Below, one piece after another: positions 1,394-57,764 of a stretch of DNA of 64,000 bases. Position 1 is the stretch's first letter. Every line of letters begins with the position of its first letter. The notes beneath the pieces were generated by a model. That model did no database searches. It was given only the letters and a program-made list of their open reading frames with translations, and was not told the DNA's origin. The DNA is taken from positions 1-64,000 of the forward strand of contig UYFQ01000842.1 in assembly GCA_900617105.1 (NCBI GenBank), read 5' to 3'. Both the position numbers and the translations under genes were made by a program. This stretch comes from Hydrurus foetidus (taxonomy: Eukaryota).

Positions 1394-1422
1394 GTGAGCC
1401 TGCGATTTTACGCCGAGGGGGC

Positions 1423-1689: not shown

Positions 1690-1690
1690 A

Positions 1691-2347: not shown

Positions 2348-2407
2348 TCCTTAAGCACGATTATCTACCGCACTGCCCCTTTTTTATCGGCATGAAAGAA
2401 CAGCCCC

Positions 2408-3160
2408 TTAAGGCTCGGTGCCATCTTCTTCCGGCGGGTTACCGTCGTATTGTTGGTTGCGCTGGCGCTGAAAATATGCGTCGCGAGTAAAGCTATAGCG
2501 GTCCAGCGCCGCGCCTTCCACCACCTCGCCTGCGCGCAGGTACTTGGCACGCGTGTCCACGGCGTTCAACACGGTCAAGCCGGTACGCGTGCCTTCGACA
2601 GGGATTTGCGACACCAGATTACCCTGCTGGTCGACCGGAATGGCGACCACTTCGCGCAATGTGTAGGAGCCCAGCAGCGGTAGCACCACATACGGCCCGG
2701 GTCGCACGCCCCAGCGCCCCAAGGTGACCCCAAAGTTGCCAGGATGGCGCTCGATATTGAGGTCACTGGCCACATCCATGACACCGCCCAGACCCATGGT
2801 GGTGTTCACCATGAAACGGCCCAGGTTGTCGCCCATGTCGCGGCCGCGAAGCTGCATGCCGTTGTTGATGGCGGACCAGAAGTCTTCGAGGTTGCCAAAG
2901 AAATTGCCCACGCCTTTTCGCACCATGTCTGGCACTACGCCACGGTAGGCCGTGGCGACGGGCTTGAGCACCGCCTTGTCCACTACATCGTTGAACCCGA
3001 ACACGCCGCGGTTGAACGATTCGATCGGGTCACGCGAATCGGGGCTTGCCACCGTGGCGCAGGCTTGCAGCAACACCATGCTGCCCAGCACCGACCACAG
3101 CGCCAGACGGCGCAATACACCCCACAAGCAAGCATTCCGAAGGGAAAGACCCAGGGTCAT
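2408..3160 (-). CDS. mlaA: MlaA/VacJ lipoprotein
   Basis: Lipobox LQAC; DPIESFNR, NTTMGLGG and GPYVVLPLLG motifs. Confidence 0.93.
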   Translation of the reverse strand: MTLGLSLRNACLWGVLRRLALWSVLGSMVLLQACATVASPDSRDPIESFNRGVFGFNDVVDKAVLKPVATAYRGVVPDMVRKGVGNFFGNLEDFWSAINNGMQLRGRDMGDNLGRFMVNTTMGLGGVMDVASDLNIERHPGNFGVTLGRWGVRPGPYVVLPLLGSYTLREVVAIPVDQQGNLVSQIPVEGTRTGLTVLNAVDTRAKYLRAGEVVEGAALDRYSFTRDAYFQRQRNQQYDGNPPEEDGTEP

Positions 3161-6860: not shown

Positions 6861-9800
6861 TTATTTAGCCGGCGCTGCTTCTTTTTTTGTAGCAGCTGGG
6901 GCAGATTTGGCGGGGGCCTTGGCCGATTTGCGTGCATGGATCTCACCCAGAGCACGTTTGTACTCGTTGGGGAAGACCTTGACGAACTTGGCGCGCGAGG
7001 TGTCCCAGTTGTCCAGCAACTCGCGGGCGCGTTTGCTGCCAGTCCAGCGGTTGTGGTCTTCCAGCAGCTTCTTGAGCTGGGCTTCGTCGCTTTCGCCACG
7101 GTGCCACACCGCCTTGTCGACGCTGGCTTCCTGTTCCTTGGCGGTCAGCACCTTTTCCAGGCTGACCATCGCCGTGTTGCAGCGCTTGGCGAACTGGCCG
7201 TCTTCGTCGTACACATAGGCAATGCCGCCGCTCATGCCGGCGGCAAAGTTGCGGCCGGTCTTGCCCAGCACCGCGACCGTACCGCCGGTCATGTATTCGC
7301 AACCGTGGTCACCCGTGCCTTCCACCACCGCAGTGGCACCCGACAGACGCACCGCAAAACGCTCGCCGGCCACACCGCTCAGGTAAGACTCACCGCTGGT
7401 CGCGCCGTACATCACGGTGTTGCCGACGATGGTGTTGCGCACGGCTTCGCCTCTGAAGTCGATGCTGGGGCGCACGATGATGCGGCCACCCGACAAGCCC
7501 TTGCCGGTGTAGTCGTTCGCGTCACCAATCAGGTACATGGTGATGCCCTTGGCCAGAAGGCGCCAAAGACTGGCCGCCCGTGCCTTCGAGCTGGATGCGG
7601 ATGGTGTCGTCGGGCAAGCCTTGGGGATGCGCCTTGGTCACCGCGCCGGACAGCATCGCACCGACGAGCGGTTCACGTTGCGGGCCACTTCCATGAACTG
7701 ACTTTTTCGCCGCGCGAATGGCCGGCTGCGATTTCTCGATCAGCACGTTGTCCAGGCTTTTTCCAGGCCGTGGTCTTGGTTGGCGTCTGGTAACGGGGCA
7801 CGTCGGCAGGCACTTAGGCTGCGCAAACAGGCGGGCAAAGTTGAGGCCCTGGGCCTTCCAGTGTTCAATGCCCTTGCGGGTGTCCAGCAGGTCGGATCGG
7901 CCAATCAGGTCGTCAAACTTGCGGATGCCCAGCTGGGCCATGATCTGGCGCACTTCTTCAGCGATGAAGAAGAAATAGTTGACCACGTGCTCGGGCTTGC
8001 CGGAGAACTTGGCACGCAACGTGGGGTCTTGCGTGGCCACACCCACGGGACAGGTGTTCAGGTGGCACTTGCGCATCATGATGCAGCCTTCCACCACCAG
8101 CGGTGCGGTGGCGAAACCGAACTCGTCAGCGCCCAGCAGCGCGCCAATGGCGACGTCGCGGCCGGTCTTCATCTGGCCGTCGGCCTGCACACGAATGCGG
8201 CTGCGCAGGCGGTTCAGCACCAGGGTCTGCTGGGTTTCGGCCAGACCGATTTCCCAGGGGCTGCCCGCATGCTTGATGGACGACCAAGGGGATGCGCCGG
8301 TACCACCATCATGGCCGGCAATCACCACGTGGTCGGCCTTGCACTTGGCCACACCCGCAGCAATGGTGCCGACGCCGATTTCAGACACCAGCTTCACGCT
8401 GATGCCGGCGTGCGGCGCCACGTTCTTCAGATCGTGGATCAGCTGGGCCAAGTCCTCGATCGAATAAATGTCGTGGTGCGGCGGTGGGGAAATCAGACCC
8501 ACGCCGGGCACGGAGTGGCGTAGCTTGCCGATGTACTCGGACACCTTGCCACCGGGCAACTGGCCACCTTCACCAGGCTTGGCACCCTGGGCCATCTTGA
8601 TCTGGATCTGGTCCGCGCTGTTCAGGTACTCGGCAGTGACACCGAAGCGGCCGGACGCGACCTGCTTGATGCGCGAGCGCAGGCTGTCACCGGCATTCAT
8701 GGGGATGTCGACTTCCACCACGTCTTTGCCAATGATGTCGGCCATGGTCTGGCCCTGCTTGATCGGGATGCCCTTGAGTTCCTGGCGATAACGCGCAGGA
8801 TCTTCACCGCCTTCACCGGTATTACTCTTGCCGCCGATGCGGTTCATGGCAATGGCCAGTGTGGCGTGGGCTTCGGTGCTGATGGAACCCAGCGACATGG
8901 CGCCGGTGGCAAAGCGTTTGACGATTTCCTTGGCCGACTCCACTTCGTCCACCGGAATGGCTTTGGCGGGATCGATCTTGAACTCGAACAGGCCGCGCAG
9001 CGTCAGGTGGCGCTTGGATTGGTCGTTGATGATCTGGGCGTATTCCTTGTACGTGTTCCAGTTGTTGGCACGCGTGGAGTGCTGCAACTTGGCAATCGCA
9101 TCGGGCGTCCACATGTGTTCTTCACCGCGCACACGCCAGGCGTATTCGCCGCCCGCGTCCAGCGCGTTGGCCAGCACCGGGTCGTCGCTGAAGGCCGCCT
9201 TGTGCATACGGATGGCCTCTTCGGCGATCTCAAAAATGCCGATGCCTTCCACGCGGCTGGGCGTGCGGGTGAAGTACTTGTCGATGGTCTCGGTGTTCAG
9301 GCCAATGGCCTCGAACAGCTGGGCACCGCAGTAGCTCATGTAGGTGGACACACCCATCTTGGACATGATCTTGGAGAGGCCCTTGCCGATCGCCTTGATG
9401 TAGTTGTAGATGGCCTTGTCGGCACTCAGGTCGCCCGGCAGATCCTTGTGGATGCTGGCCAGCGTTTCCATCGCGAGGTAGGGGTGCACGGCTTCTGCGC
9501 CGTAACCCGCCAGCACGCCGAAGTGGTGCACTTCGCGGGCCGTACCGGTTTCGACCACCAGGCCGGCCGTGGTGCGCAGACCGGCACCGACCAGGTGCTG
9601 GTGAATCGCCGACAGGGCCAGCAACGCGGGGATCGCCACCTGGGTGGCAGACACGGCGCGATCGCTGATGATCAGGATATTTTTGCCACCCCTGATCGCG
9701 TCCACAGCTTCAGCGCACAGCGAGGCCAGCTTGGCTTCCACACCTTCGTGGCCCCAGGCCAGCGGGTAGGTGATGTCCAGCGTCTGGCTGCGGAACTTGC

Positions 9801-11713: not shown

Positions 11714-11765
11714 ATCAAAAATGATAGCTGCTAGCGCAATAAAATCGGGGGCTAGAGGCCGATTT
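11712..11765 (+). repeat. 55-bp palindromic repeat family, copy 1 (5' end eroded)
   Basis: ATATCAAAAATGATAGC-TGCTAGCGC-AATAAAAT-CGGGGGCTAGAGGCCGATTT; ends 5 nt from the stop codon of the Y1-HUH gene. Confidence 0.8.
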
Positions 11766-11770
11766 GGCAC

Positions 11771-12463
11771 CTAGCTTTCGGCACTAGAGGGTCTGCCAGG
11801 GCTGCTTTTGCTGAGCCGCCGAGGGGTTTTCATTTGGAGTTCGGACAGAAAACCCTCCTCCCCCAAAGCCCAGCCGCGCAGCACCGCGTCCGTCAAAGCC
11901 GCCTGCTGGCCCTGGCTGATGCCGTTTTGCACCAATTGGGCGTACGCGGCTTCGCGAGCGAAAGGCGTGTTGCCAAGGTTCCAGACCAAGGGATGGGGGG
12001 TGATCAGTTTGTCGGCCTGCAGGCCACTGTAGTGGCCGTGGCTGGACCACTGGTAGTCGCACGCTTGCGCCACCAGGCCTGCGCGCACGGGGTTCAGGTC
12101 GATGTAGGCCATGCAGGCCAGCAGGTACCGATCGGTCTCGATCAGGGTGGATTTGTAGCGCCCTTCCCATAGCGTGCCCGTGCGCTGGTAGCGGTCGTTG
12201 AAGTAGCGCACATAGCTGCGACCTACCGACTGCATCATCTTTGGCAGGGCCTCGTCGGTGGATGGCGTGGCCAGCAGGTGAAAGTGGTTGTCCATCAGCA
12301 CGTAGGCGTGGAGGGATATGCCGAACTTGCGGGCGTTCTCGTAGAACAAAGCCTGCAAGGTCTGGAAGTCTGCCGTGTCCAGGCAAATGGGCTGGCGGTT
12401 ATTGCCCCGCTGAACAACGTGGTGCGGGTAACCCGCGAGGGTCAAACGGGGAAGGCGTGCCAT
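11771..12463 (-). CDS. Stand-alone Y1 HUH endonuclease / REP-associated tyrosine transposase (RAYT-like, IS200-superfamily fold)
   Basis: HVVQRGNNR, HAYVLMDNHFHLL (HUH = HFH), LWEGRY, YIDLNPVRAG (putative catalytic Tyr), YQWSS; no adjacent tnpB. Confidence 0.9.
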   Translation of the reverse strand: MARLPRLTLAGYPHHVVQRGNNRQPICLDTADFQTLQALFYENARKFGISLHAYVLMDNHFHLLATPSTDEALPKMMQSVGRSYVRYFNDRYQRTGTLWEGRYKSTLIETDRYLLACMAYIDLNPVRAGLVAQACDYQWSSHGHYSGLQADKLITPHPLVWNLGNTPFAREAAYAQLVQNGISQGQQAALTDAVLRGWALGEEGFLSELQMKTPRRLSKSSPGRPSSAES

Positions 12464-14545: not shown

Positions 14546-15742
14546 CTACTCCACCAGCAGGCGCCGCCCGGTCAGGCGCTCATGCTCTCGAAGCGCGAAC
14601 CGGTCGGTCATACCGGCGATGTAGTCAGCGATAGTGCGGCGGAACGCGCTGGCATCACCCACCGCCTGCTGTGCGGCCAGCGCATGCGCGCCTGCGCCGC
14701 CCTGCATATGGGCGGGGGCCTGGCTGTAGGCATCGAAGAGCTCGCGCACCACCTGCTTGGCCGCATCCATGGTCTGCACCACCTGGGGATGGCGATAGAG
14801 CTGACGAAAGAGAAAGGACTTCAGCACCTTGGACTGTGCCCCCATGTCGGGAGTGAAACTGACCAAGGCGGGGCAGGCGCGCACGTCTTGCACACTGTGC
14901 GGCGTGTGCTCGTTCAATGCAGCCTGTGTGGCAGCGATCACGTCGTACACCTGATCACTGAGCATCAGGCGGATGGATTCGTATAGCAAGCGCCGCGACT
15001 GCCCAGCCTCTGCCAACGCCGGGTGCTGGTGCAAAGCAGCCTGGCAATAACCGTCAAACAACGGAACTTCCTGCATCTGGGCCAACGTCAACAAACCCGA
15101 GCGCACCCCATCATCAATGTCGTGCGCGTTATAGGCAATTTCGTCAGCCACATTGCACAGCTGGGCCTCCAGACTGGGCTGGGTGTGGTTCAGAAAACGC
15201 TGCCCTACCCCACCTGCGCCATCGGCAAACCTTGGCTCCTTCGCCTCCAGCAGTTCTGCATTGGTGCGTGAGCAGTGTTTCAGAATGCCCTCGCGCGATT
15301 CAAAGCTCAGGTTCAAGCCATCGAACTGCGGATAGCGCTCTTCCAGATGGTCCACCACGCGCAGGCTCTGCAGGTTGTGTTCAAAGCCCCCAAACGGCAC
15401 CATGCAGCCGTGCAGCGCGTCTTGACCGGCGTGGCCAAACGGCGTGTGGCCCAGGTCATGGGCCAGTGCAATGGTCTCCACCAAATCTTCGCTCAAACCC
15501 AGCGTGCGGGCAATCGAACGCCCCAGCTGCGCCACCTCCAACGAATGTGTCAACCGGGTGCGAAACAGGTCGCCCTCGTGGTTGATAAACACCTGGGTCT
15601 TGTACACGAGCCGCCGGAATGCGGTGGAGTGCACGATGCGATCGCGATCACGCTGAAACGCGGTGCGCGTGGGCGCCTGGGACTCCGCAAAGCGCCGACC
15701 GCGCGATTGGGCAGGGTCACAGGCGTAGAGCTGAAGGCTCAT
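14546..15742 (-). CDS. dgt: Deoxyguanosinetriphosphate triphosphohydrolase (HD domain)
   Basis: RDRDRIVHS, RTRLTHSLEV, HDLGHTPFGHAG, DYIAGMTD. Confidence 0.93.
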   Translation of the reverse strand: MSLQLYACDPAQSRGRRFAESQAPTRTAFQRDRDRIVHSTAFRRLVYKTQVFINHEGDLFRTRLTHSLEVAQLGRSIARTLGLSEDLVETIALAHDLGHTPFGHAGQDALHGCMVPFGGFEHNLQSLRVVDHLEERYPQFDGLNLSFESREGILKHCSRTNAELLEAKEPRFADGAGGVGQRFLNHTQPSLEAQLCNVADEIAYNAHDIDDGVRSGLLTLAQMQEVPLFDGYCQAALHQHPALAEAGQSRRLLYESIRLMLSDQVYDVIAATQAALNEHTPHSVQDVRACPALVSFTPDMGAQSKVLKSFLFRQLYRHPQVVQTMDAAKQVVRELFDAYSQAPAHMQGGAGAHALAAQQAVGDASAFRRTIADYIAGMTDRFALREHERLTGRRLLVE

Positions 15743-15746
15743 AGTT

Positions 15747-15801
15747 AAATTAGGCTATAGCCCCCATGGAATATGCGCCAGTAGCTATCATTAAAGTAGC
15801 A
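15747..15801 (-). repeat. 55-bp palindromic repeat family, copy 2
   Basis: Minus strand T-GCTACTTTAATGATAGC-TACTGGCGC-ATATTCCA-TGGGGGCTATAGCCTAATTT; fills 55 of the 60 nt between aroB and dgt. Confidence 0.88.
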
Positions 15802-15802
15802 C

Positions 15803-16912
15803 TCATGCGGCGCAGCAGGCATCAATCACTTCGCGGATCAGGGCATCTGGCGCACCGCGCACGGCCGCGTGCCCTGGACCATCAATGACCACAAAGCGGA
15901 TGTCGCCCGCCTCGGATTTCTTGTCCAGGCGCATCAACTCCAGGTAACGTCCCGCGTTGTCTTTTGCATCCAGCTGTGGCCCCACGATGGGGAGGCCAGC
16001 CTTCTGGATCAGGCCCGTCAGGCGCTCTACAAATGCCAAGTCCACCAATCCTAGCTTCTGCGACAAATGCGCCGCCATCACCATGCCGCAACCAACCGCT
16101 TCACCATGCAGCCATTCGCCATAACCCAGGCCAGCTTCGATCGCATGGCCGAAGGTATGCCCAAAGTTCAAAATCGCCCGCAGACCAGCCTCGCGCTCGT
16201 CCTGCCCAACCACCCAGGCCTTGATTTCGCAGCTGCGCCGCACGGCGTGGGCCAAGGCCACCGGGTCGCGGGCCAGCAAGGCGTCAAGGTTCACCTCAAT
16301 CCAGTCCAGGAAAGCCATATCGGCAATCGGACCGTACTTGATGACTTCCGCCAACCCGGCACTCAGTTCCCGCGTGGGCAGGGTCTTGAGCGTGTCCAGA
16401 TCGCAGACCACCAGCAGGGGCTGGTAAAAAGCGCCGATCATGTTCTTGCCCAAGGGGTGGTTGATGCCGGTCTTGCCACCCACGGAAGAATCCACCTGCG
16501 AAAGCAAGGTAGTTGGCACTTGAACAAACGGTACGCCTCGCATATAGCTGGCCGCCGCAAAACCGGTCATGTCGCCAACCACGCCACCGCCCAACGCAAA
16601 TAGGATGGTTTTTCGGTCGCAGGCCTCGGAGAGCAATGCGTCAAAAATCTGGTTGAGGGTTTGCCATGTCTTAAACACCTCGCCATCAGGCAGCGTAATT
16701 AGCTGGACGCTGGCATAGCGTACCTTCAGCGCAGAGAGCAATGCCCCGGCATACAAAGGCGCAACCGTGGTGTTGGAAACGATCACCGCGTGGCTAGCTT
16801 TAGGCAATGCGGCGTACACATCAGCAGTGCCCAGCAAACCCGTGCCCACCTGAATGGGATAGCTGCGCTCGGCCAGAGCAATATCTACGGTATGAAAATT
16901 CGGAGAGGTCAT
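15803..16912 (-). CDS. aroB: 3-dehydroquinate synthase
   Basis: [43 protein letters not shown]. Confidence 0.97.
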
Positions 16913-25743: not shown

Positions 25744-27023
25744 GCCTGCCCACACTTCCCGGACACCCCCATATCCACTACGCCAACGGCGAACTCCATG
25801 TGGAAGGCTGCGCAGTTGCTCCCCTGGCACAGCAGCATGGAACCCCCTTGTTTGTGTACTCCAAAGCCTCCATGCTGGCGGCGCTGGCGGCTTACCAAAA
25901 AGGCTTTGCGGGGCGTAACGCCCAGGTCTGCTACGCGATGAAAGCGAATACGTCGCTGGCTGTGCTGCAACTCTTCGCGAAGGCTGGTTGTGGCTTTGAC
26001 ATCGTTTCCGGTGGCGATCTTGCTCGTGTCATTGCTGCAGGTGGTGATACACGCAAAGTGATCTTCTCAGGCGTCGGTAAAACCCGTGCAGAAATGCGCG
26101 AGGCACTGCGCATCGGCATTGGCTGTTTCAATGTGGAGAGCGAGGCCGAGATCGATGTGCTCAACGAAGTCGCCGTCAGCGTGGGTACCAAGGCGCCGGT
26201 TAGCATCCGGGTGAACCCCAACGTCGACGCCAAGACCCATCCGTACATTTCCACGGGTCTCAAAGGCAACAAGTTCGGCATTGCGCATGAGCGCACTTTG
26301 ACCTCTTATCAGCGCGCCGCGGCCCTGCCCGGCCTGAAGGTCGTTGGCATTGACTGCCACATCGGCTCCCAGATCACCGAAGAGACCCCCTACCTGGACG
26401 CCATGGACCGCATGCTGGAGCTGGTGGAGTCCGTCGAGGCGGTGGGTATCCCCATCCACCACATCGACTTTGGTGGCGGCCTGGGCATCAATTACAACGG
26501 CGATACCCCACCCGCAGCCGATGCCCTGTGGGCCAAGCTGCTGGCCAAGCTGGATGCGCGCGGCTTTGGCCAGCGCCAGCTGATGATCGAGCCTGGCCGT
26601 TCCCTCGTGGGCAATGCGGGCATTTGTGTGACCGAGGTGCTCTACATGAAGCCCGGTGAGCAAAAGAACTTCTGCATCGTCGACGCTGCCATGAACGACC
26701 TGCCCCGCCCCGCGATGTACCAAGCGTTCCACAGCATCGTGCCGCTGGACGCCAGCAAATTGGCCGCCCCGAGTGGTGAGATATTCGATGTAGTGGGCCC
26801 AGTATGCGAAAGCGGCGACTGGATTGGTCACGACCGCGCGCTGAACGTGCAAGCGGGTGACCAGTTGGCCGTGCTGTCAGCAGGCGCCTACTGCATGAGT
26901 ATGGCCAGCAACTACAACTCGCGCCCCAAGGCGGCCGAGGTCTTGGTGGATGGAGACCACAGCCACTTGATCCGCGCACGCGACACGCTGGCAGACCAGA
27001 TGCGGGGCGAGAAGCTGCTGTAA
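25740..27023 (+). CDS. lysA: Diaminopimelate decarboxylase
   Basis: YAMKAN (PLP lysine), HPYISTG..NKFG, HIGSQ, EPGRSLVG, GPVCESGD. Confidence 0.97.
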   Translation: MSLPTLPGHPHIHYANGELHVEGCAVAPLAQQHGTPLFVYSKASMLAALAAYQKGFAGRNAQVCYAMKANTSLAVLQLFAKAGCGFDIVSGGDLARVIAAGGDTRKVIFSGVGKTRAEMREALRIGIGCFNVESEAEIDVLNEVAVSVGTKAPVSIRVNPNVDAKTHPYISTGLKGNKFGIAHERTLTSYQRAAALPGLKVVGIDCHIGSQITEETPYLDAMDRMLELVESVEAVGIPIHHIDFGGGLGINYNGDTPPAADALWAKLLAKLDARGFGQRQLMIEPGRSLVGNAGICVTEVLYMKPGEQKNFCIVDAAMNDLPRPAMYQAFHSIVPLDASKLAAPSGEIFDVVGPVCESGDWIGHDRALNVQAGDQLAVLSAGAYCMSMASNYNSRPKAAEVLVDGDHSHLIRARDTLADQMRGEKLL

Positions 27024-27025
27024 TT

Positions 27026-27080
27026 TGCTATTGATTCAATAGCTGCTTGCGTAGCGTTGACGGGGGCTAGCGCCGCTTTT
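27026..27080 (+). repeat. 55-bp palindromic repeat family, copy 3
   Basis: T-GCTATTGATTCAATAGC-TGCTTGCGT-AGCGTTGA-CGGGGGCTAGCGCCGCTTTT; between convergent lysA and msrQ and overlaps the msrQ stop. Confidence 0.88.
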
Positions 27081-27681
27081 TCTTTATAAACTGCAGTACA
27101 CGCCAGCCCAGCAGGATCCCCAAAATGGCGGCATACACCGCCACCTCGGCAAAGTTGTGCTTGCCAGCACGCATCCAGAAGAAATGCAAAATGGCCAGGC
27201 CCGCCACCGCGTAGACCGCGCGGTGCAGCGCCTGCCAGCGCTTGGCGCCCATGGCCTTGATCACGCGGTTGAACGACGTGGCCGCCAGTGCAGTCAGCAG
27301 TAACAAGGCCGTGAACCCCACCAGGATGAACGGCCGCTTGGCAATATCAGCCGCAATGTCGGCCACGTCCAGCCCCATGTCGAACCAGCTGTACGACAGC
27401 ATGTGCAGCACTGCATAGGCAAACGTCCACAGCCCCAGCATGCGGCGCAGTCGGGCCAGCGAAGGCCAGCCGGCGATGGTGCGAAGCGGGGTAACCGTCA
27501 GCACCACGCACAGCGCACGCAGCGTCCAGTCGCCCGTGGCCCGCACCAGCGCTTCCGCAGGGTTGGCGCCCAACCGATCGGCAAACGCCGCGTACACCAA
27601 CCAGATCAGAGGCAAAGCGGCCACGACAAACACCACCGGTTTGGCCGCGCGGTGGGCCAACCAAGAGTTCACGGTCGCCAC
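27067..27681 (-). CDS. msrQ: Methionine sulfoxide reductase heme-binding subunit MsrQ
   Basis: LTVTPLR, RRMLGL..F.YA.LH, WQALHRAVY. Confidence 0.93.
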   Translation of the reverse strand: MATVNSWLAHRAAKPVVFVVAALPLIWLVYAAFADRLGANPAEALVRATGDWTLRALCVVLTVTPLRTIAGWPSLARLRRMLGLWTFAYAVLHMLSYSWFDMGLDVADIAADIAKRPFILVGFTALLLLTALAATSFNRVIKAMGAKRWQALHRAVYAVAGLAILHFFWMRAGKHNFAEVAVYAAILGILLGWRVLQFIKKKRR

Positions 27682-37793: not shown

Positions 37794-39053
37794 ATGAAAC
37801 TCCAGACACAACGCTTCATTGACCGCTGGGCAGGCCAGCTGCTGTGTGGCGCGGTGTCTGGGTGGGTGAAATTCGCCGGGCTTTTTGGTGCGCCTGCCCG
37901 CATGGGCAAAGCACCAAAGCATATTCTGGTGATCCTTCTTTCCGAGATGGGCAGCATCGTATTGGCGGGCCCCATGTTTGCGGCCCTGCGCCGGCAGTAC
38001 CCAGGTGCGGCCATCCATATCCTGCAACTGAAGAAGAACCAGGAAGTCTCCAAACTGCTCTCGCTCACCGAGCCCGAGTACATGCACACGCTGGACGACA
38101 GTTCCGGTGGCAATCTGATCCGTGACATCCTGAAAATCAGTCTGGCCATGCGCAAGCTGGGGCTGGACGCGGTGCTTGACTGCGAGCTGTTCTCGCGCGT
38201 GAGTGCCCTACTCTCGTTCAGCACTGGCGCCCCCGTACGCGTGGGCTTCACGCCGCACACGCAGGAAGGCTTGTACCGCGGCAGCTTCATCAACCACAGC
38301 ATTCCGTACAACCCCTACCAACACATCAGCAAACAGTTCCTGTCGCTGGTGGACGCGCTGCAATCGCCCGAAGGCATGCCGCGCAACCGGGCAGGGCCCA
38401 TTCGCGACATTCCGGCCGAGCCAGAACTCTCCGTGGCCTTCACGCCCGACGAACTGGCCGCTTACCGCAGCAAGGTAGCAAGCGATCACCCAGTGACCCA
38501 CACGCGTCCGCTGGTGCTGGTGTATGCCGGCGGTGGCATCCTGCCCGAACGGGCCTGGCCCGCCAGCCACTACGCCCGCGTGGCGCAAGGCCTGTGTGCG
38601 GCCGGTTACGCGGTAGGCCTGATTGGACTCAAGGACGATGCGGTGCTGGCACGTGACCTCCAAACCCAGGTGGGCAGTGAGGCCTGCATCGACCTCACGG
38701 GCTACACCAAGAGCATCCGCGAGCTGCTCATGCTCATGCATGCCAGCGCCCTGCTCATTACCAACGACGGCGGACCCAGCCATTTCGCCACCGTCACACC
38801 CATCCAGACCATGGTGTTCTTCGGACCCGAAACTGGCAAGCTGTATGGCCCTCTGGGCAAACGCACCATCATTCTTGAATCCGGCATTGCCTGCTCGCCC
38901 TGCCTGACCGCCTACAACCACCGCCTGACGTTTTGTGATGGGGACAACCAGTGCCTCAAGCGCATTGCGCCAGACCCCGTGCTGGACCAAGCACTGGCCT
39001 TTTTGCGCGGCAGCGCCAATGCCAGAATGCGCAGCGCAGGCGCTGCCGCATGA
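37794..39053 (+). CDS. Glycosyltransferase family 9 (heptosyltransferase-like)
   Basis: EMGS N-terminal motif, RAWP, DLTG, TNDGGPSH, FFGP, CSPC..C..C. Confidence 0.85.
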   Translation: MKLQTQRFIDRWAGQLLCGAVSGWVKFAGLFGAPARMGKAPKHILVILLSEMGSIVLAGPMFAALRRQYPGAAIHILQLKKNQEVSKLLSLTEPEYMHTLDDSSGGNLIRDILKISLAMRKLGLDAVLDCELFSRVSALLSFSTGAPVRVGFTPHTQEGLYRGSFINHSIPYNPYQHISKQFLSLVDALQSPEGMPRNRAGPIRDIPAEPELSVAFTPDELAAYRSKVASDHPVTHTRPLVLVYAGGGILPERAWPASHYARVAQGLCAAGYAVGLIGLKDDAVLARDLQTQVGSEACIDLTGYTKSIRELLMLMHASALLITNDGGPSHFATVTPIQTMVFFGPETGKLYGPLGKRTIILESGIACSPCLTAYNHRLTFCDGDNQCLKRIAPDPVLDQALAFLRGSANARMRSAGAAA

Positions 39054-39532
39054 GCGCCGTGCAGCGACTGGTGCTGTGGACATTGGGCTGGATGGAGCGC
39101 TACCGCTACATCAAGTTCGGCATCGTCGGTGCCAGCGGTACGGTGGTGAATCTGGTGGTGCTGCACCTAGGGCACGAGTTCCTGTTCTATGAACTCGAAG
39201 CCGCCTACAACAAGCCGTATTTTTCGTTGGCCCTGGCCATTGCCGTAGCCACGCTGAACAACTTCACCTGGAACCGGCTGTGGACCTGGTCGGACCGCGT
39301 CAAGACGCTGGAAGCCCAAGAAGCCCAGCCCGTCAGTCTGCGCCTGCTGGGCCTGGAGTTTGGCCAGTACGTCACAGCCTCGGCATTTGGCAGCGGCCTG
39401 CAGTACGTGCTGACGCTGCTGCTCTCGGGCAGCATGGACTACCGCCTGGCCAACATCGTTGCCATCGTCGCGGCCAGCGTCAGCAACTTCCTGGCCAACG
39501 ACCGCTGGACCTTCAAGCGCAACCAAGACTGA
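39050..39532 (+). CDS. GtrA family membrane protein
   Basis: KFGIVGASGTVVN, NNFTWNRLWTW, NFLANDRWTF. Confidence 0.88.
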   Translation: MSAVQRLVLWTLGWMERYRYIKFGIVGASGTVVNLVVLHLGHEFLFYELEAAYNKPYFSLALAIAVATLNNFTWNRLWTWSDRVKTLEAQEAQPVSLRLLGLEFGQYVTASAFGSGLQYVLTLLLSGSMDYRLANIVAIVAASVSNFLANDRWTFKRNQD

Positions 39533-39549
39533 TCGCGCTCAGCGGCACC

Positions 39550-41322
39550 ATGCAGGCCCACGCTTTGTCACACCGCGCACCGACCTGGCCCTGGCTGGTC
39601 CTGGTGTTCTTGGCAGCCACCCTCTACCTATTCGGCCTGGGCAACTTTTACGCCCCCACCAACGGCGACGAGATGGTTTACATCCACATCGCCCGCATGA
39701 CGGCCGAGAGCGGCCACTGGCTGCCGCTGCAGTCTGAGCTGGTGGGTACGCGCAATACCAAACCGCCGCTGTTGATCTGGCAGGCCATGGTGGCCGGTGG
39801 CTGGGGGCAGCACTGGAGCCTGTTCGCATTGCGCCTGCCCAGCATCGCCTACACCTTTGCCACCACTGCCCTGCTGGCCTTCTTTGCGCACCGCATGGCG
39901 CCCGCACCCGGCAAGCTGCGCGTGGCCTGCATTGCTGCCACGCTGTACCTGCTGTACTTCTCTACCTTCCGCTACGGCAGGGTGTACCTGACCTCTGCGC
40001 CCGAGACCTTCTGGCTGGCGCTGCCCATGTGGTGGCTGCTGTGGCTGCACCTGCGTGCGCCTGCCGTGCAGTCAGCCGCCCTGCAACTGGGTTGGTTGGC
40101 CTACACGCTGATCGGTGCGGCCATGGGCCTGGGGGCCGCCTACAAGTCGTTTGCGCTGGTGGCGCCCACGGCGGCGGCGCTTTGGTGCGCGGTGCTGCTC
40201 AGCGAACCCTGGAGCTGGCGCAGCACGCTGCGCACCACCATAGGCGTGACCTGGAGCACGCTTCTGGGCCTGGGCATCTTCGCGCTGTGGTTTGTGCTGG
40301 ACCCCAACCCCGCCGAGGTGTGGCAGGAGTTTGTAATGGCCGAGAACGCCGGCAAGATGTCCAGCAGCCTGGGCTACTGGCAGGCCGCGCTGGTTGGCGC
40401 CTACCCCATGTGGACCCAGCTGCTGGCCTACCCGGCCAACGGCGGCCTGTTGGCGCTGCCGGTGCTGGGCTTTTGCCTGCACGCGCTGGGGCGCGGCTGG
40501 CGCCCGCGCCACTACGCACAACTCAGCCCTGCGCTCTGGGTGCTGCTGGCCTGGCTGGTGGTGTGGCTGGTGGTGTTCACCATCCCCAACCAGCGATCGG
40601 AACGTTATGTGATTCCAGCCATGCCAGCGCTGGCCATTGCCATGGCGCTTCTCTGGGACCGCCTCAACCGCTTCTGGTTTGCCGCCACGCTGCTGATCAC
40701 CGTGCCTGCACTGGCCATGCTGGGTCGCATTGGCTGGGTCATGGGCAGCCTGGGTATGGCAAGCCCGTTTGAAGTTGCTATGACTTTGATAGCTGCTGGC
40801 GCAGGATTGGCGGGGGCTACAGCCGGATTTATTCGATTTTCTTGGGCGCGCAACGCGACACTGCTAGTCTGCCTGGCCGTGTATGGCTGCTTTTCGCTGA
40901 TGGTGCAACCCCTCTCGGGTGACGAAGCGGGCTACAGCGCCGCCGTGCAAAGCCAGACGAAGGGCCTGCGCCTGGCCGTACCCAATGGTTTTACCGGCCA
41001 GTACGAGCGCTTTCACTTTGTGCTGCCCGGTGCGCGCATCACGCCCTATGACGCCGAAGGCCGCAACACCGGTGCGCTCTACCCCGAAATGCCGCCCGCG
41101 GAACGCCTGGAACGCTTGTTGAAGGAGTTTGACGCTGTCGTATGGCTGCAAGACGATTTGGATGAACAACCCAGCTGCCTGCCCCACTGCACGGTGGTGG
41201 ACCAACGCTGGCATGTGAAAAGCCGCCACAAAGACGGCGAAGTGACGCTGGACAACCTGTGGCAACCCCAGCAGTGGCTGTTCCGCCGGGAGTGGTTGTT
41301 GACGCCTGCCGCAGGCGGCTGA
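39550..41322 (+). CDS. ArnT/PMT-like (GT-C) undecaprenyl-dependent glycosyltransferase
   Basis: Polytopic membrane protein; GDE..Y..IAR.M, KPPLLIW, LRLPS, YKS, RYVIPAMP. Confidence 0.82.
   Translation: MQAHALSHRAPTWPWLVLVFLAATLYLFGLGNFYAPTNGDEMVYIHIARMTAESGHWLPLQSELVGTRNTKPPLLIWQAMVAGGWGQHWSLFALRLPSIAYTFATTALLAFFAHRMAPAPGKLRVACIAATLYLLYFSTFRYGRVYLTSAPETFWLALPMWWLLWLHLRAPAVQSAALQLGWLAYTLIGAAMGLGAAYKSFALVAPTAAALWCAVLLSEPWSWRSTLRTTIGVTWSTLLGLGIFALWFVLDPNPAEVWQEFVMAENAGKMSSSLGYWQAALVGAYPMWTQLLAYPANGGLLALPVLGFCLHALGRGWRPRHYAQLSPALWVLLAWLVVWLVVFTIPNQRSERYVIPAMPALAIAMALLWDRLNRFWFAATLLITVPALAMLGRIGWVMGSLGMASPFEVAMTLIAAGAGLAGATAGFIRFSWARNATLLVCLAVYGCFSLMVQPLSGDEAGYSAAVQSQTKGLRLAVPNGFTGQYERFHFVLPGARITPYDAEGRNTGALYPEMPPAERLERLLKEFDAVVWLQDDLDEQPSCLPHCTVVDQRWHVKSRHKDGEVTLDNLWQPQQWLFRREWLLTPAAGG
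40776..40830 (+). repeat. 55-bp palindromic repeat family, copy 4 (in frame inside the ArnT-like gene)
   Basis: T-GCTATGACTTTGATAGC-TGCTGGCGC-AGGATTGG-CGGGGGCTACAGCCGGATTT; encodes AMTLIAAGAGLAGATAGF. Confidence 0.85.
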
Positions 41323-41368
41323 ACCGCATTGCAGCGTCACCGCTGCGCGCGGTCTATGTCCGCCACAG

Positions 41369-41381
41369 CCCCCCCCCCCCC
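41369..41381. repeat. C13 homopolymer, intergenic
   Basis: 13 consecutive C between the ArnT-like stop and the terminator. Confidence 0.8.
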
Positions 41382-41406
41382 TCCGGAGACTGGAGGCGCT
41401 CAAACG

Positions 41407-41436
41407 AAAAAAAGCCGACCCAAGGTCGGCTTTTTT
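41407..41436. terminator. Bidirectional intrinsic terminator
   Basis: A7-GCCGACC-CAA-GGTCGGC-T6 between convergent genes. Confidence 0.9.
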
Positions 41437-41452
41437 AATGTCGGTTTAGCGC

Positions 41453-41821
41453 TTAGTAGCGGTTGCCACCGCCGTAACCACCACCACCGCCGCCGCCGCC
41501 GTAACCACCACCGCCGCCTTCGCGACGACCACCACCGCCGCCACCGCCGCCGCCGAAACCACCTGTGCGGGGTTCCATAGGACGCGCTTCATTGACAACC
41601 ATATCGCGGCCGTCAACGTTCTTGCCGTTCATGCCGCCGATAGCCGCTTGGGCTTCTGCGTCGCTGGACATTTCCACAAAGCCGAAGCCTTTGGAGCGGC
41701 CGCTATCGCGGTCCATCATGACCTTGGCCGACGAAACGGTGCCAAATTCAGAGAAGTTTTGGTTCAGGGATTGGTCATCTACCGAGTAGGAGAGATTGCC
41801 GACGTAAAGTTTCTTGCCCAT
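41453..41821 (-). CDS. RRM RNA-binding protein with glycine-rich tail
   Basis: RNP2 LYVGNL, RNP1 KGFGFVEM, VVNEARP, GGGGYGG tail. Confidence 0.95.
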   Translation of the reverse strand: MGKKLYVGNLSYSVDDQSLNQNFSEFGTVSSAKVMMDRDSGRSKGFGFVEMSSDAEAQAAIGGMNGKNVDGRDMVVNEARPMEPRTGGFGGGGGGGGGRREGGGGGYGGGGGGGGYGGGNRY

Positions 41822-42167
41822 GGTGGGATCTTTCAAAAAGCGCTCGCAGTTCCAATGAACCACGTAACGCAGGGGGAATGACGGTCTTGGTTAAAAACCA
41901 TCGCATTCGGGAGAACCGGCGTCCATGCACCGGATCTGCATCCAGCGCTTGGGCCCAAGTCAGGTGTTTGGTCGGGAGAAAAAGGGGACCGGAGTAAAGC
42001 TCGCCGCTGGGGGAGTTTGACAACCGGGAGGGCCGAGACTATCGGCCAAAAAGGTGCGGAGGCGGCGTATGGGGTGCCGCAGACCGTGTCAGACTGCAAA
42101 CACTGCAAGGTAAGCAAAATGCAGCGTCACTCGCGATTTTACCCCTGATCCAGCGCGCAGGGGCCGA

Positions 42168-49206: not shown

Positions 49207-50223
49207 ATGCCCCGTAAGTCCATCACCCTGAACGAAGTTGCCGCCGCGGCGGGCGTCTCGACCATGACCGCCTCCCGCGCAATCAACCACCAGACCGGCG
49301 TGTCGACCAAAACCCGCGAAGCCATCCTCAAACTGGCGGCGGACATGGGCTATTCGGCCAACCGCAGCGCGCAAAAGTTGTCTACCGGGCGCAACCGCGT
49401 GATTGGCGTGCTGGCCGCAGAGCTGGACAACCCCTTCATCGGCGCGCTGGTGTCCGGCGCGGTGCGCGCGGCGGCCGTGGCGGGGCATGAGGTGCTGATC
49501 TATTCACTGGTAGACCACGCCGGGCACCCCACGGGCAATGTGATGGATTTGTTGCAGCAGTTCACCGACGGAGTGATCGCCGTGTTGCCCTACCAGTTTG
49601 GCTTTGTAGAGCAGCTCTCCGTGGCCATGCACCCGGTCATCACGATTGACCACCACAGCGAGCATTCCGAATTTCCGTCCGTCGCGGCCGACAGCTACGG
49701 CGGCGCCCGCAAGGCCCTGCAACACCTGGCCGACTTGGGGCACACACGCATCGCCTTCCTCACAGGTGACGAAGCCCTGGGGTCGGCCCGGGACCGGCAC
49801 CGCGCCTACGACGATGCCGTCAAACTGATGGACCTGGAGGCCGATGCAACCCTGGTGCTGCAGGGCGACTATTCGCTGCGCGGCGGCCAGGAGGCCGGCC
49901 ACAAGCTGCTCAAGATGCGCAAAAAACCCACCGCTGTTTTTGCTTGCAACGACATGAGCGCGCTAGGCATGATGTCCGTGCTGCAGTCTGCCGGCCTGCG
50001 CGTGCCGGAAGACATTTCCATCGTCGGGTTCGACGACCTGCCCATTGCCAGCCAGATTCACCCCGGCCTGACCACGGTCCGCCAGCCCATTGGCGAAATG
50101 GGGCGCGCCGCGGTCAATGCGTTGCTGACCCTGATTGCCGGCATGGAAGTCGCCAGCGCAGAAATCGTCCTGCCCACCAGCTTGGTCGTGCGCGAATCCA
50201 CCATGGCATTGAAGAAGAAATAA
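49207..50223 (+). CDS. LacI-family transcriptional regulator
   Basis: TLNEVAAAAGVSTMTASRAIN helix-turn-helix; VPEDISIVGFDD; LTTVRQP. Confidence 0.96.
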   Translation: MPRKSITLNEVAAAAGVSTMTASRAINHQTGVSTKTREAILKLAADMGYSANRSAQKLSTGRNRVIGVLAAELDNPFIGALVSGAVRAAAVAGHEVLIYSLVDHAGHPTGNVMDLLQQFTDGVIAVLPYQFGFVEQLSVAMHPVITIDHHSEHSEFPSVAADSYGGARKALQHLADLGHTRIAFLTGDEALGSARDRHRAYDDAVKLMDLEADATLVLQGDYSLRGGQEAGHKLLKMRKKPTAVFACNDMSALGMMSVLQSAGLRVPEDISIVGFDDLPIASQIHPGLTTVRQPIGEMGRAAVNALLTLIAGMEVASAEIVLPTSLVVRESTMALKKK

Positions 50224-50272
50224 GGCTCTAGCCCGCGTGGAATATGCGCCAGCAGCTACTTATTTAATAGCG
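50218..50272 (-). repeat. 55-bp palindromic repeat family, copy 5
   Basis: Minus strand C-GCTATTAAATAAGTAGC-TGCTGGCGC-ATATTCCA-CGCGGGCTAGAGCCTTATTT; contains the stop codons of both convergent neighbours. Confidence 0.88.
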
Positions 50273-50962
50273 CCGCAATGCCACCCGCAGCAGGTAACCG
50301 TGCAGGGCCAGCCAGAGCCAGGGGTCCAGCACCGCGTCCCACACATTGCCCGTGGGCAAGCGCAGCGCGACAAACGCCACCACCGCCAGCGGAACCACCC
50401 AAGCCAAGGGCCGGCTGCCGGTTTGCGAATTGGACAGCACCAGCCCCAGACTTACCCAGGCCACCAGCGCCACCGCCAGCGGACTGAAGCCCCAAGCATA
50501 GAGAGACACGGGCAAGGGCAGCAGCGCAAAGACATCGAACAGCAGCGCCCACCCCAACAGCACACCCGCAAAGGCCAGTGGCGCCAGCCCCCGCACCGGC
50601 GCGGGGGTGCGCCGCGTGGCCCAGGCTGGCGGCGGCTTGCGCAGGCGCCGCAACAGCAGGCGGATGCACAGCAGCACCAGCACGACACTGGGCTGCTGAA
50701 ATGCCAGCCCCAGCCAGTAGGCCGGGGACCAGGGGTCGGGCAGCCACATGCTGGCCAGCACCAGCGCCGCCACCGTGAGCACGGCGGCACGGTAGGGCGT
50801 CCACCAGCCTACCAGCACACAGCCCAGCCACGCCAGCACCACGCCCCAGCCCAGGTGCAGCCAGCCTTGGGTTAGCTCCAGCGAAGGCAGGGCCGGCGCA
50901 TCAGTCGCCACCACGGTGCTGACCAGGTGCAGCAGTCCGTTGATCAGGCTGTCTGGGCTCAT
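50264..50962 (-). CDS. Hypothetical polytopic membrane protein
   Basis: Several hydrophobic segments; C-terminal NVWDAVLDPWLW; ATG overlaps the upstream stop. Confidence 0.75.
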   Translation of the reverse strand: MSPDSLINGLLHLVSTVVATDAPALPSLELTQGWLHLGWGVVLAWLGCVLVGWWTPYRAAVLTVAALVLASMWLPDPWSPAYWLGLAFQQPSVVLVLLCIRLLLRRLRKPPPAWATRRTPAPVRGLAPLAFAGVLLGWALLFDVFALLPLPVSLYAWGFSPLAVALVAWVSLGLVLSNSQTGSRPLAWVVPLAVVAFVALRLPTGNVWDAVLDPWLWLALHGYLLRVALRRY

Positions 50963-53944: not shown

Positions 53945-56900
53945 CTACTGCATGGTCAGGTTCAGCTCGGCCTGGGGCTTGGCGTCTGCGGCACGGCCGG
54001 TGGTCTTGGTGGCACCCAGGAACAGGCGCTCGGCCGGCACCTTCTGCGTGGCCAGGTAGTCCTTCACCACCACGCCGCGTTGCAGCGCCAGTTCGCGGAT
54101 GGTGTCGCCGCTGACCGTGATGTTGGCCAGCAGCAGGGCCTCCATGTCGGGCACCTCGATATCCTTGGTCAGCCCTACCAGGTTGCGCGGCTTGGTGATG
54201 TCCGCGCGACGGTACACGGCGCGCAGCAGCGCGGACATTTCTTCCGGCGTGTAGCCCGCCACGGTTGCGGCGTCTTCCCCCTGGCCGCTGGCGCGACGCC
54301 GCTTCTCGGCCAGCAGCAGGCCCCTGAGTTTCTCGCGCTTGACGGCTTCGCGTTCGGCCTCCAGCTGGGCCTGACCCACCACGGTGAGCGTGAGTGCGGG
54401 GCGATCCACCAGCGCCTTGGCCACCTTGTCCAGGCCGGTGCGCGCAGCATCGCTGAGCACGCCGCTGCCAGGGGCAAACGCCACCGTGCTGAGCTCTGAA
54501 CTGCTGCCACCACCAAAGGCATTGGCCAGCAAGCTGAAGGGCGAGGTAATGGCCTTGACCACCAGGTTGGTGATGACTTTCCAGATTACCGGGCCGATGC
54601 GGAACTGCGGGTCGTTCAGTGAGCCGCTGATGGGCAGATCCAGGTCGATCACGCCGTTGCGGTCGGCCAGCAGGGCCACCGCCAGTTTCACCGGCAGGCT
54701 GTTGGGCGCTCCCTCCACCTTGTCGCCAAAGCTCAGTTGGTTCAGCACCAGCTTGTTGCTGGCGGTGAGCTGACCGTCGGGTTGCACCGCGTAGCGCACG
54801 TCCACACTGAGCTTGCCGCGTTCGATGCCGTAGCCCGCGTACTTCACGGCGTAAGGCGAGAGCGGCGGCAGCTCCAGGTCGCGCACCTTGCCTGCAATGT
54901 CCAGCGCCAGCGGCTTGGCCAGCGGATTCAGCTTGCCCGTGATCTCCAGCGAGGCCGTACCTTCGGCGCGACCGCGCAGTTCGAGGTCGGCCAGCTGCAC
55001 CACGCCACTGCTGGGCTGGCTGGAGAACTGGCTGAGCTTGCCGGTCAGGTCGCTCAGGTCGGCCGTGTAGTTGGGCTGGATAAAGCGGTCCGAGAACAAC
55101 ACCTTGCCGTTCACCAGGCTGATGGGGCCTACGGTGATGATGGCGTCGGGTGCTGCATGGGTGGGGCCTGCCGCTGCGGCCGCTGCGGCAGGCCCGGCAG
55201 GCGCGGGCGTCTTCATCAGTTCCTGCAGGTTCAGGCGCCCCGCGGGACTGACGATGAGGCGGGCATAGAAATCGGACAACGCGGCCTCGCGCACCGCCAC
55301 GCGGGTGGCGGCGCCTGGCACCATGACCAGGTCGATGCCGGGCACGTTGAGTGCCTTCCAGCTCAGCAGCTCTTCGGCAAAGCCACCGCTTGGGCCCTGT
55401 ACGGTGTTGGCGCGGAAGTCGTCCAGCTGGGCATCGCCCTTGAGCGCCATGTCAGGCCCGTTGGGTGTGCTGGCAAAGCGCAGCTGACCCTTGAAGCTGG
55501 CATCGGCGCGCAGCACGTCCAGGTTGATCTGGTCGGCAAAGTAGGGGACCAGCGCATGCAGCGGCAAATCCTGCAGCGCCACACTGCCCTGGGCCTGCAC
55601 CGGGTCCCAGGCGGCGGTGCCCTGGTAACGCAGGCTGCCGGCCTCGGCCTGGCCCGATTTCACGCGCGCGCTCAGCGTGAGCAGCACCGGCTTTTTGCCA
55701 TCCAGCTGCGCGTCCTTCAGCAGCAGGTTCAGTGCCGACACCTCCAGCCGCACCGGGCGGTTGTGGGTGCGGTCGGACACCACGGCGCTGGCGTCCTGCA
55801 CATTCAGTTCGCCCAGTGCCACCTTCCAGGGCGGCGTTGCTACGGTGGCTGGTTTGTCCTTTGCGGGCTTCAGCCAGCTCTGGAAAATCCACTGCCCATC
55901 GGCCTCGCGCCGCACACCGGAGCTGGCACGTTGCAGCAGCACCTTGCCCACGCGGGCGGTGCGCGCCGTGGGGTCGGCCTGTACATCAGTGATCTCCAGC
56001 AGCTTGAACTGCGGCAGGTCGGACGACGAAGGGCCGTTGGCCGTGCGGGCGATGCGATCGCCCGCCACGGGCTGGGTGGCCACCAGGCCTGCATCGCGCA
56101 CAGCCAGGCGCTGCGCCGTGACCGTGACCTGCTCGCCTTGCCAGCTGGCGCCCAGTTGGGCATCCAGCAGGCCGCGCACCGCAGGCTCCAGAAACTGCGC
56201 CGTATAAGGCGCGGCCAGTGCCAGCGACATGTCATTCACCGTGGCCTGGACTCGGCCCTGCTGCAGCGTGCCGTCCAGTTTGAAGGCCAGGCGCGCCGCC
56301 GTGCCCTTGCCCGGCACCGTGGCCGAGCCTTCGGCAGTGACCGGCTTGTCCATGGGCCATTGCAGGCCCTGGGCGGTGAACGCCACGTCCGCCAGGGCCA
56401 GCTTGGCCGCAGGCTGGGTCTGCTGGTCCAGCCAGTCCACCGTGCCACCCGTCAGGGCCAGGCGCTCCAGCTGCAGCGTCCAGGGTGCGGGGGCCGCTGC
56501 GGCAGGCGTTTTAGCATCTTTTTGGCCTGTAGCCCCCGTGGAATATGCGCGAGCAGCTCCTTTTTTAGGAGCACTCTCCGCTGGCTTGCCACTGGCCAGG
56601 TCCAGATTCAGGTGACCGTTGCGGGCACGTACCACCTGCAGGTGCGGGTTGGTGACCGTGATGGCAGAGAGCTTGACGATCTGCTCCAGCGGTCGCACAT
56701 CGGCCACCTCGGTACGCACCGTGTCTACCGCCAGCAGCGGCGCACCTGCCGCATCGGCCACGGCGAGCTGGCTGACCGTCACCACGCCCGACAGGCTGAC
56801 CGAGGCTTGCGGGGTCTGCACAAAACCGATCTTGAGCTCGGCGTTCACCACCGCGCTTTGCGGTTTTACTGGCAGGCTGGCTGGCAAATAGGACAGGTAC

Positions 56901-57613: not shown

Positions 57614-57764
57614 GGCAAAACGGTTCCGTAAAGGCTTCAACAGGGCAGCAGCCTGCCTGGCTGTGATGGTAACGGGCTGCAGCGACAACCACAGGCTTTG
57701 ATCTGCATCAAGTGCGCAGGCCCATCACCGTGGGAAGCTTGCGCAGCCACTTCGGAGACTCGCC

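Follow-up and report, generated by a model that had tools for sequence, protein, structure and literature searches.

We analyzed a 64,000-nucleotide stretch (the window) of contig UYFQ01000842.1, from an assembly filed under Hydrurus foetidus (GCA_900617105.1), in which a copy of a dispersed repeat family lies in frame within a membrane glycosyltransferase gene. This host gene comes from a Rhodoferax-like bacterium and encodes 590 amino acids; its open reading frame (ORF) extends from 39280 to 41322, with 39550 as the most likely start. An AlphaFold (AF2) model of the protein, built from a 45-sequence alignment, reached a predicted local distance difference test (pLDDT) score of 87.2 and a predicted template modeling (pTM) score of 0.90. 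In this model, a multi-helix membrane domain, whose last helices span residues 374 to 400, 406 to 428, and 430 to 455, precedes a soluble C-terminal domain (residues 464 to 590). The top Foldseek matches were the structures 5ezm and 5f15 of ArnT from Cupriavidus metallidurans (E = 1e-9, TM-score of 0.55 to 0.59; probability of 1.00 for 5ezm), followed by ALG9, AglB/OST, PMT, and Emb; these matches represent the glycosyltransferase C (GT-C) fold. Searches of Pfam and NCBIfam returned nothing at 1e-3, the sole weak Pfam match being Glyco_transf_22 (E = 0.23), and a sequence profile search of the PDB gave no match. The host protein thus shares with ArnT the fold, the combination of a membrane domain with a C-terminal soluble domain, and a neighborhood related to lipopolysaccharide (LPS), but it is only 16 to 17% identical and stands outside the Pfam and NCBIfam families. 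A first-pass annotation, made from the DNA letters alone, had called the gene ArnT-like. The fold agrees with that label (5ezm, E = 1e-9) and membership in a sequence family does not; the label is fair at the fold level only.

Codons 410 to 427 of the host gene (40777 to 40830) translate to AMTLIAAGAGLAGATAGF. This stretch was matched by an nhmmer profile constructed from 28 intergenic copies of the repeat in another genome, that of Rhodoferax saidenbachensis BE308 (G001), whose ortholog of the host gene is 91% identical. On a position matrix, the window copy scores 55.7 bits, where the median of the family is about 60. A/T-ending codons make up 18 of the 25 codons from 407 to 431 and 11 of the 18 from 410 to 427, compared with 93 of 565 (16.5%) in the rest of the gene. 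The enrichment of the longer tract has a binomial p of 1.2e-9, and every other 25-codon window of the gene contains at most 10 such codons. The tract overlaps a predicted transmembrane helix (residues 406 to 428) that is flanked by the helices at 374 to 400 and 430 to 455 and lies ahead of the soluble domain. The in-frame copy with A/T-ending codons and the reading of this segment as a transmembrane helix near the end of the membrane domain had both been proposed in the first-pass annotation. The former is borne out, with its start (40776) placed one base too early, and the latter agrees with the predicted helix. The features are collected in Table 1.

Table 1. Positions in the window of the host gene, its repeat copy, the other family copies, and the neighboring genes
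Feature	Position	Strand	Basis
Membrane glycosyltransferase gene, GT-C fold, ArnT nearest solved structure	39550..41322	+	ORF/start, AF2, Foldseek
In-frame copy of the dispersed repeat family, profile positions 5-64	40772..40831	+	nhmmer 43.5 bits, E 8e-13
A/T-ending codon tract, codons 407-431, likely whole extent of repeat-derived DNA	40768..40842	+	18/25 A/T-ending
Predicted transmembrane helix 406-428, second-last of the membrane domain	40765..40833	+	DSSP on AF2 model; block pLDDT 95-98
Weak or degenerate family copy	6875..6917	+	nhmmer 16.4 bits, E 2e-4
Intergenic family copy	11719..11782	+	nhmmer 46.0 bits
Intergenic family copy	15730..15807	-	nhmmer 48.8 bits
Intergenic family copy	27023..27096	+	nhmmer 50.2 bits
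Intergenic family copy	50205..50274	-	nhmmer 50.5 bits
Second coding copy, in frame in DUF748/AsmA-family gene (53945-57688, -)	56504..56577	-	nhmmer 47.9 bits
GT9 heptosyltransferase-like gene	37794..39053	+	Pfam PF01075
GtrA-family gene, directly upstream of the host gene	38951..39532	+	Pfam PF04138, E 1.1e-19

The G001 profile found seven places in the window at E < 1e-3; besides the in-gene copy, five scored between 46 and 50.5 bits and one was weak, at 16.4. A repeat search likewise paired positions 40777 to 40834 with stretches near 6885, 11722, and 27035 on the same strand and near 15750, 50214, and 56522 on the opposite strand. The core pattern of the family is TGCTAY-N8-TAGCTGCTNGCGCA-N8-GGGGGCTA, and copies in whole genomes were counted with TAGCTGCTNGCGCA-N8-GGGGGCTA, allowing up to 3 mismatches. 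This core has 436 matches in the 4.4 Mb of G001, where the reversed control has none, and the in-gene copy of the G001 ortholog matches its 22 specified bases with no mismatch. The stretch within the host gene is therefore a true member of a dispersed repeat family.

The full repeat unit of about 60 to 85 nt (tGCTAY-N8-TAGCTGCTnGCGCA-N8-cGGGGGCTAgaGGCCtaTTT) combines an AT-rich hairpin of 4 to 6 bp with conserved unpaired blocks. Judged by eye, the pairing of the left hairpin is inconsistent between copies. Fold z-scores ranged from -2.5 to +0.7 over eight folds of the seven copies, the in-gene copy being folded on both strands; one was below -2, and the in-gene copy gave +0.66. The copies in the window are single and kilobases apart, with no inverted doublets, and an Rfam scan of the whole window at gathering thresholds gave no match. 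The family is thus similar to repetitive extragenic palindromic (REP) elements, but having no clear palindrome and no doublets, we do not file it as a REP or as a hairpin-forming REP doublet (REPIN). It exists in lineage-specific versions (G306, G313, and G179 compared with G001), for which the forms are GGGGGCTA, GGGCGCTA, and TGTGCA...GGGCGTTA. The G179 form, GCGC(A/T)T...CAAGSGCTA, is able to pair as a second hairpin, and in the G306 family a C restores GCGC/GCGC pairing.

To examine what stands at this place in related genes, we used 64 orthologous loci with 58 to 91% identity, from Rhodoferax, Curvibacter, Aalborgicola, and other relatives. Two of them (L029 and L042) are incomplete at the site, leaving 62 that cover it. 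None of these 62 has an indel inside the segment, the repeat-less ingroup sequences included; just downstream, L036 is 4 residues longer and L038 is 1 residue shorter. A wider search, covering 301 genomes sampled from the same family, yielded 29 further loci (34 to 72% identity), none of which matches the repeat at the homologous place and in which the G+C content at third codon positions (GC3) there is like that of the rest of the gene. Ten outgroup orthologs, 43 to 55% identical, align without gaps and have a helix of the same length written in G/C-ending codons. Since no indel separates the 62 orthologs and the 29 loci are repeat-free at the site, the repeat appears to occupy the place of a native helix of equal length. 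One added helix would flip the C-terminal domain across the membrane, and therefore only a length-neutral replacement would be viable. By this alignment, the repeat would stand where a native membrane helix stood, without adding a residue. Of the two possibilities raised in the first-pass annotation, an insertion of about 18 amino acids in the manner of the Rickettsia palindromic elements (RPEs) does not agree with the 62 of 62 site-covering orthologs that lack an indel in the segment, whereas the replacement of a native helix fits the same-length helices, with G/C-ending codons, of the 10 outgroups. Its observation is confirmed and its interpretation is partly supported, as a replacement and not an insertion; it did not anticipate the age of the copy, the conservation of its synonymous sites, or the link between its fate and that of the family in each genome.

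Of the 62 orthologs, 44 match the repeat profile at the homologous place (E ≤ 0.1), 31 of them with at least 20 bits. The GC3 of the 25-codon tract is 0.28 to 0.52 in the listed repeat-bearing orthologs, compared with 0.7 to 0.9 for their genes. Column statistics were computed on 45 repeat-bearing sequences. Across codons 409 to 428, 62% of codons are A/T-ending, against a gene median of 20%, a level that none of 531 non-overlapping windows reaches (maximum of 41%). At column 410, 41 sequences have GCT and 4 have ACT; at column 414, 34 have ATA, 6 have GTA, and 5 have CTA; and at column 418, 42 of 45 have a codon ending in A. Over the whole gene, GCT accounts for 9% of Ala codons, ATA for 8% of Ile codons, and ACT for 7% of Thr codons. 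Third bases are kept even where the residue changes; it is the bases, not the residues, that are conserved. Gly419, which falls in the variable spacer of the family, is 96% identical among the repeat-bearing sequences and is also Gly in the repeat-less ones; the spacer of the in-gene copy is constrained by the protein instead of by the family.

The state of the site is related to how abundant the family is in a genome. Hundreds of family copies occur where the gene copy is strong: 436 in G001, 366 in G302, 393 in G303, 439 in G304, 193 in G305, and 331 in G306. In contrast, genomes with ordinary codons and a different peptide at the site have one (G307 and G308) or none (G309 and G310). The first-pass annotation had pointed to the same peptide written in ordinary codons, in genomes without the family, as the mark of a chance resemblance; the orthologs there have ordinary codons and a different peptide, so this check does not refute its reading. 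Scanning with the profile gave no family copy in 200 kb of G307 and no significant one in 171 kb of G310. In 400 kb of G001, the same profile picked up 53; in G306, it found 50 in addition to the gene copy, and in 391 kb of G313, it found 14. The genome G129 (locus L016) has ordinary codons and a different peptide at the site, yet it has 38 family copies, and five genomes without a profile match at the site (those of L049, L043, L030, L064, and L008) have between 4 and 43. Where the family is sparse, a state of decay is found in which the peptide is retained and the codons have drifted to G/C, as in L050 and L057.

The host gene is not the only gene with a copy. A crude test placed 9 of the 51 G306 copies, and 6 of 32 copies sampled from G001, in coding-like frames. 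The test undercounts, since it passed none of the 7 window copies though two of these sit in genes; about a fifth of the family copies look coding. The second coding copy of the window falls in a variable Ala/Pro linker of a DUF748/AsmA protein (DUF748, E = 4.9e-278). In an alignment read by eye, about 8 of 30 orthologs of that gene have a gap at the copy, and many, from distant genera included, keep traces of it (xKKIA...STG..GQK). In G001, same-frame copies occur in LeuRS (L084; 5 to 6 residues longer there than the Neisseria enzyme), in GcvP (L091; 1 residue more than a solved homolog), and in a SrkA/YihE-type kinase (L082; 12 residues more, with the LIAA of the element falling on a native LIAA), and a copy appears to spell the putative signal peptide MVKSTHKLIAACALFMGASGLF of a TctC/Bug-family binding protein (L081; ORF 987-2471, plus strand). 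In this small sample, coding copies add fewer residues than their own 20 to 25 codons, which suggests an overlay instead of a plain insertion. A copy of opposite orientation near position 1482 of L092, also in G001, falls within what looks like a coding frame for an aquaporin-like protein (HFNP motif); it seems to begin in a loop and to reach the first part of a membrane helix.

In some lineages, extra family copies stand at the borders of the host gene, 7 to 46 nt past its stop codon, near its start, or overlapping its 3' end. Such border copies are found in L002, L007, L009 to L011, L015, L016, L018, and others, and the window and L001 are without them. Copies come and go at these borders; therefore, the family was active during the radiation of the group. 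G001 also encodes a Y1-transposase resembling the REP-associated tyrosine transposases (RAYTs), with 80.5 bits for NCBIfam NF047646 against a cut-off of 80. A family copy lies at the end of the RAYT-like gene in G001 (L198), G304 (L196), and G306 (L199), and copies lie on both sides of a paralog in G302 (L200).

To place these states in time, we constructed a quick maximum likelihood tree, rooted with the outgroups, from which the columns of the element had been removed. The repeat-less clade of L045, L058, L059, and L063 is the sister of a clade of 58 sequences (SH-aLRT support of 95), with L016 in an unresolved basal fork. A second repeat-less clade (L040, L044, L047, L062, and L052) is nested deep among the repeat-bearing sequences. 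Large-scale recombination as the reason for this placement was ruled out, as the L040 clade stays nested in each of the FastTree trees computed for the N-terminal, middle, and C-terminal partitions. Its 25-residue segment is 24% identical to that of the window (counted by hand), compared with 71% for the whole protein, and is more hydrophobic (Kyte-Doolittle value of 2.27 versus 1.76); its genomes are without the family. Either a local replacement or a fast escape after loss of the family would account for this clade. The in-gene copy is old, being at this site across dozens of related species. Its date of origin is given only as a minimum, the ancestor of the 58-sequence clade, and an older origin is a live rival.

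Given the family membership of the copy, its frame, the unchanged length, the conserved third positions, and the link to family abundance, we infer, with modest confidence, that a genuine REP-like copy overwrote the DNA of a native helix, without change of length, in an ancestor of the Rhodoferax/Curvibacter group, and that it has since been held by a process that maintains the family. The overwriting in that ancestor is likely. It is also likely that the in-gene copy has since been preserved as a nucleotide sequence by the same upkeep, whatever its nature, as the rest of the family. This process may consist of sporadic gene conversion, or of rewriting with other copies as the template, in which a RAYT-type transposase might take part; selection on the protein would admit only helix-forming variants. 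Once the family is extinct, the gene copy would drift to ordinary codons, or a more hydrophobic helix would take over.

If the gene copy is rewritten from the family, it should resemble the version present in its own genome. We evaluated this with position matrices, each made from an unbiased 400-kb sample of one of three genomes. The gene copy of L006 scores 54.2 under the matrix of its own family, versus 41.1 and 47.4 under the others, and that of L030 scores 40.9 versus 3.1 and 19.6. The family consensus differs at three diagnostic positions, and there, over the three genomes, the base of the gene copy is that of its own family in all 9 cases. Among genomes with at least 10 informative copies, the G/C variant of the GGGGG block also agrees in most cases: among the 17 genomes of G type, 14 have G in the gene copy, 2 have T, and 1 has C, and among the 8 of C type, 5 have C there and 3 have G (Fisher p = 0.0055, a value inflated by the few independent events, as the C-type genomes belong mostly to one clade). 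The correlation between gene-copy score and family density is also positive (Spearman rho of 0.73, n = 50, and 0.60 when controlling for protein identity), part of it being shared divergence, since both score and counts come from G001-type models, and the correlated genomes are related to each other.

Beyond these qualifications, several observations weigh against an overwriting followed by maintenance. The L001 copy scores 47.8 under its own matrix versus 49.1 and 46.1, and the window copy is nearly equal under all three (55.7 with the G001 matrix, 55.3, and 56.0). The families of G336, G337, and G339 are C-type, but their gene copies have G; those of G350 and G327 have GCGCA where the gene has TGT GCA; and those of G342 and G350 have GCTA where the gene has GTT. 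The change from G to C (GGG to GGC) is, moreover, synonymous and toward the preferred codon. RAYT-like genes are found in all five family-poor genomes too, and RAYT presence was rejected as a divider of family-rich and family-poor genomes (5 of 5 in each group). Requiring the repeat-bearing sequences to be monophyletic costs 70 log-likelihood units (approximately unbiased [AU] test, p = 0.009, for a group defined after the first tree); with the L040 clade nested among them, this calls for at least one erasure or for a second event. The helix assignment is that of a predicted model, and neither a donor nor a junction of the overwriting was identified. We know of no mechanism that swaps about 60 to 75 nt for an equal length. 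On balance, the gene copy tracks the family version partly, in a manner that fits occasional, not continuous, conversion.

A stronger form of this scenario is possible, although we hold it only tentatively and would not expect it to be right. A selfish family may hold the helix hostage: RAYT-linked rewriting, from time to time, to the current version of the lineage would keep an Ala/Gly-rich, less hydrophobic, rare-codon helix in place until the family died out. The helix would then be free to become more hydrophobic and to take on ordinary codons, and the initial entry would have been a length-neutral overwriting at a short preexisting likeness, not an insertion.

The alternative that survives best places the origin earlier. 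The DNA of the helix may have been repeat-derived before all sampled orthologs split, outgroups included, in which case the repeat-less genes would have been erased and no overwriting would have occurred within the group. The L040 clade shows complete erasure within the repeat-bearing group, outgroup genomes keep a variant family (75 copies in G179, 33 in G006, 14 in G144, and 13 in G190), and some outgroup peptides resemble the repeat-coded one (L099, ALTLIAVAIGLGLVLAGLF; L102, AAALICASAGII). The last point is weakened because such likeness is expected anyway of orthologous helices rich in Ala, Leu, and Gly. None of the 29 distant loci has a repeat match at the site, their GC3 there is ordinary, and, if the model is correct in that a single added helix would flip the C-terminal domain, the helix must have preexisted. 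We therefore consider an older origin unlikely, at roughly the level of a minority opinion.

It is improbable, in our view, that the A/T-ending codons serve the gene itself, by slowing translation at membrane entry or as an internal RNA or DNA signal, with the likeness to the repeat a matter of history. Rare codons do cluster on a membrane helix, and they are conserved in 44 of 62 orthologs. Yet conservation follows the information content of the family and not codon rarity, GGG and TTG being kept where the family has them, and it is lost precisely in family-free genomes. Some lineage-specific changes of the family are common to the gene copy, and the stretch has neither an Rfam match nor unusual folding energies.

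Recurrent capture, in which a hot spot was overwritten independently in several lineages, seems more doubtful still. It would account for the non-monophyly of the repeat-bearing sequences (AU p = 0.009), and it draws on the turnover of the family at the borders of the same gene in relatives and on the other coding copies, whose position coincides with a matching LIAA or RA already present in the native protein. However, register, frame, and the protein-constrained spacer (GGN TTG/CTG GCG) are the same in 44 of 44 copies, and one gain followed by erasure in the family-free L040 clade needs fewer events. Finally, a chance resemblance of an Ala/Gly-rich helix to the repeat, for which nothing speaks beyond the low complexity of the peptide, is ruled out by the profile from another genome (E = 8e-13), by the absence of mismatches over 22 core bases in the G001 ortholog with no reversed-control match in that genome, and by the scores of -33 to -83 bits that repeat-less helices receive on the position matrix.

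Three known systems invite comparison. RPEs (Ogata et al. 2000, 2002) are insertions of about 150 bp that add a peptide and are translated in frame (PMC10969869, PMC3733652). As in that system, members of the present family are translated in frame, without a stop, in ordinary genes whose proteins are apparently tolerant of them. By contrast, the unit here is about 60 to 75 nt, adds no residue, and lies at the place of a native membrane helix, and it belongs to free-living, high-G+C Comamonadaceae, with third positions held across many species. REPINs and their association with RAYTs have been defined (PMC3116915), and some REPs lie within ORFs (Di Nocera et al. 2013; PMC3733652). Insertions of GTAG/CGTC REPs and RPEs inside ORFs are thought to be neutral, in linkers or loops (PMC10969869, PMC3733652). 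With hundreds of copies per genome, RAYT-adjacent copies, a lineage-specific consensus, and some copies in ORFs, the present family resembles REPs and REPINs; it differs in being not clearly palindromic, in consisting of single units instead of inverted doublets, and in being about one-fifth coding. Its location is not solely extragenic, with two of the 7 window copies in genes, and where intragenic REPs are linker or loop insertions, this copy would be a length-neutral membrane helix.

The third system, the Beta-proteobacterial repeat element (BRE), is about 90 bp long, has 69% G+C, is often in tandem, and has 4 copies in R. ferrireducens (PMC3110155); it, too, is a repeat of Comamonadaceae with some copies within coding sequences. 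As far as the supplementary sequences of that report go, we rejected the BRE (Bordetella, Comamonadaceae) as the present family: three of the four core strings are absent from them, and TAGCCCC occurs once, in an unrelated BRE (PMC3110155). The four core strings were not found in the literature searched, which also yielded no description of this family among reports on REPs in Comamonadaceae and none linking RAYTs with these genera.

In-frame repeat copies are usually viewed as tolerated loop insertions. Here, a copy appears to replace a structural membrane helix at no cost in length and has persisted through a genus-level radiation, with synonymous sites constrained by the identity of the repeat and not by the protein. 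The locus may therefore serve as a natural system for how dispersed repeats are homogenized at fixed sites, whether by conversion or by selection through a trans-acting factor. It opens the question of whether selfish DNA limits the optimization of proteins and of how repeat DNA turns into protein, a question that is directly testable, as family-rich and family-free relatives carry the same gene with different helices.

Regarding the surroundings of the host gene, metK (identified by its domains) and two lipid A acyltransferase genes (PF03279 twice) lie upstream of the GT9 and GtrA genes of Table 1. These neighbors (lipid A acyltransferases, GT9, and GtrA) hint at an envelope substrate for the host enzyme. 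Two oligo-dT RNA runs with the same species label have no reads on positions 38900 to 41900, a library type that makes them silent on expression. Downstream, on the minus strand (41453-41863), a small RNA-binding protein with an RNA recognition motif (RRM) domain has a Gly-rich tail that derives from a GGY-type tandem repeat (repeat family D2).

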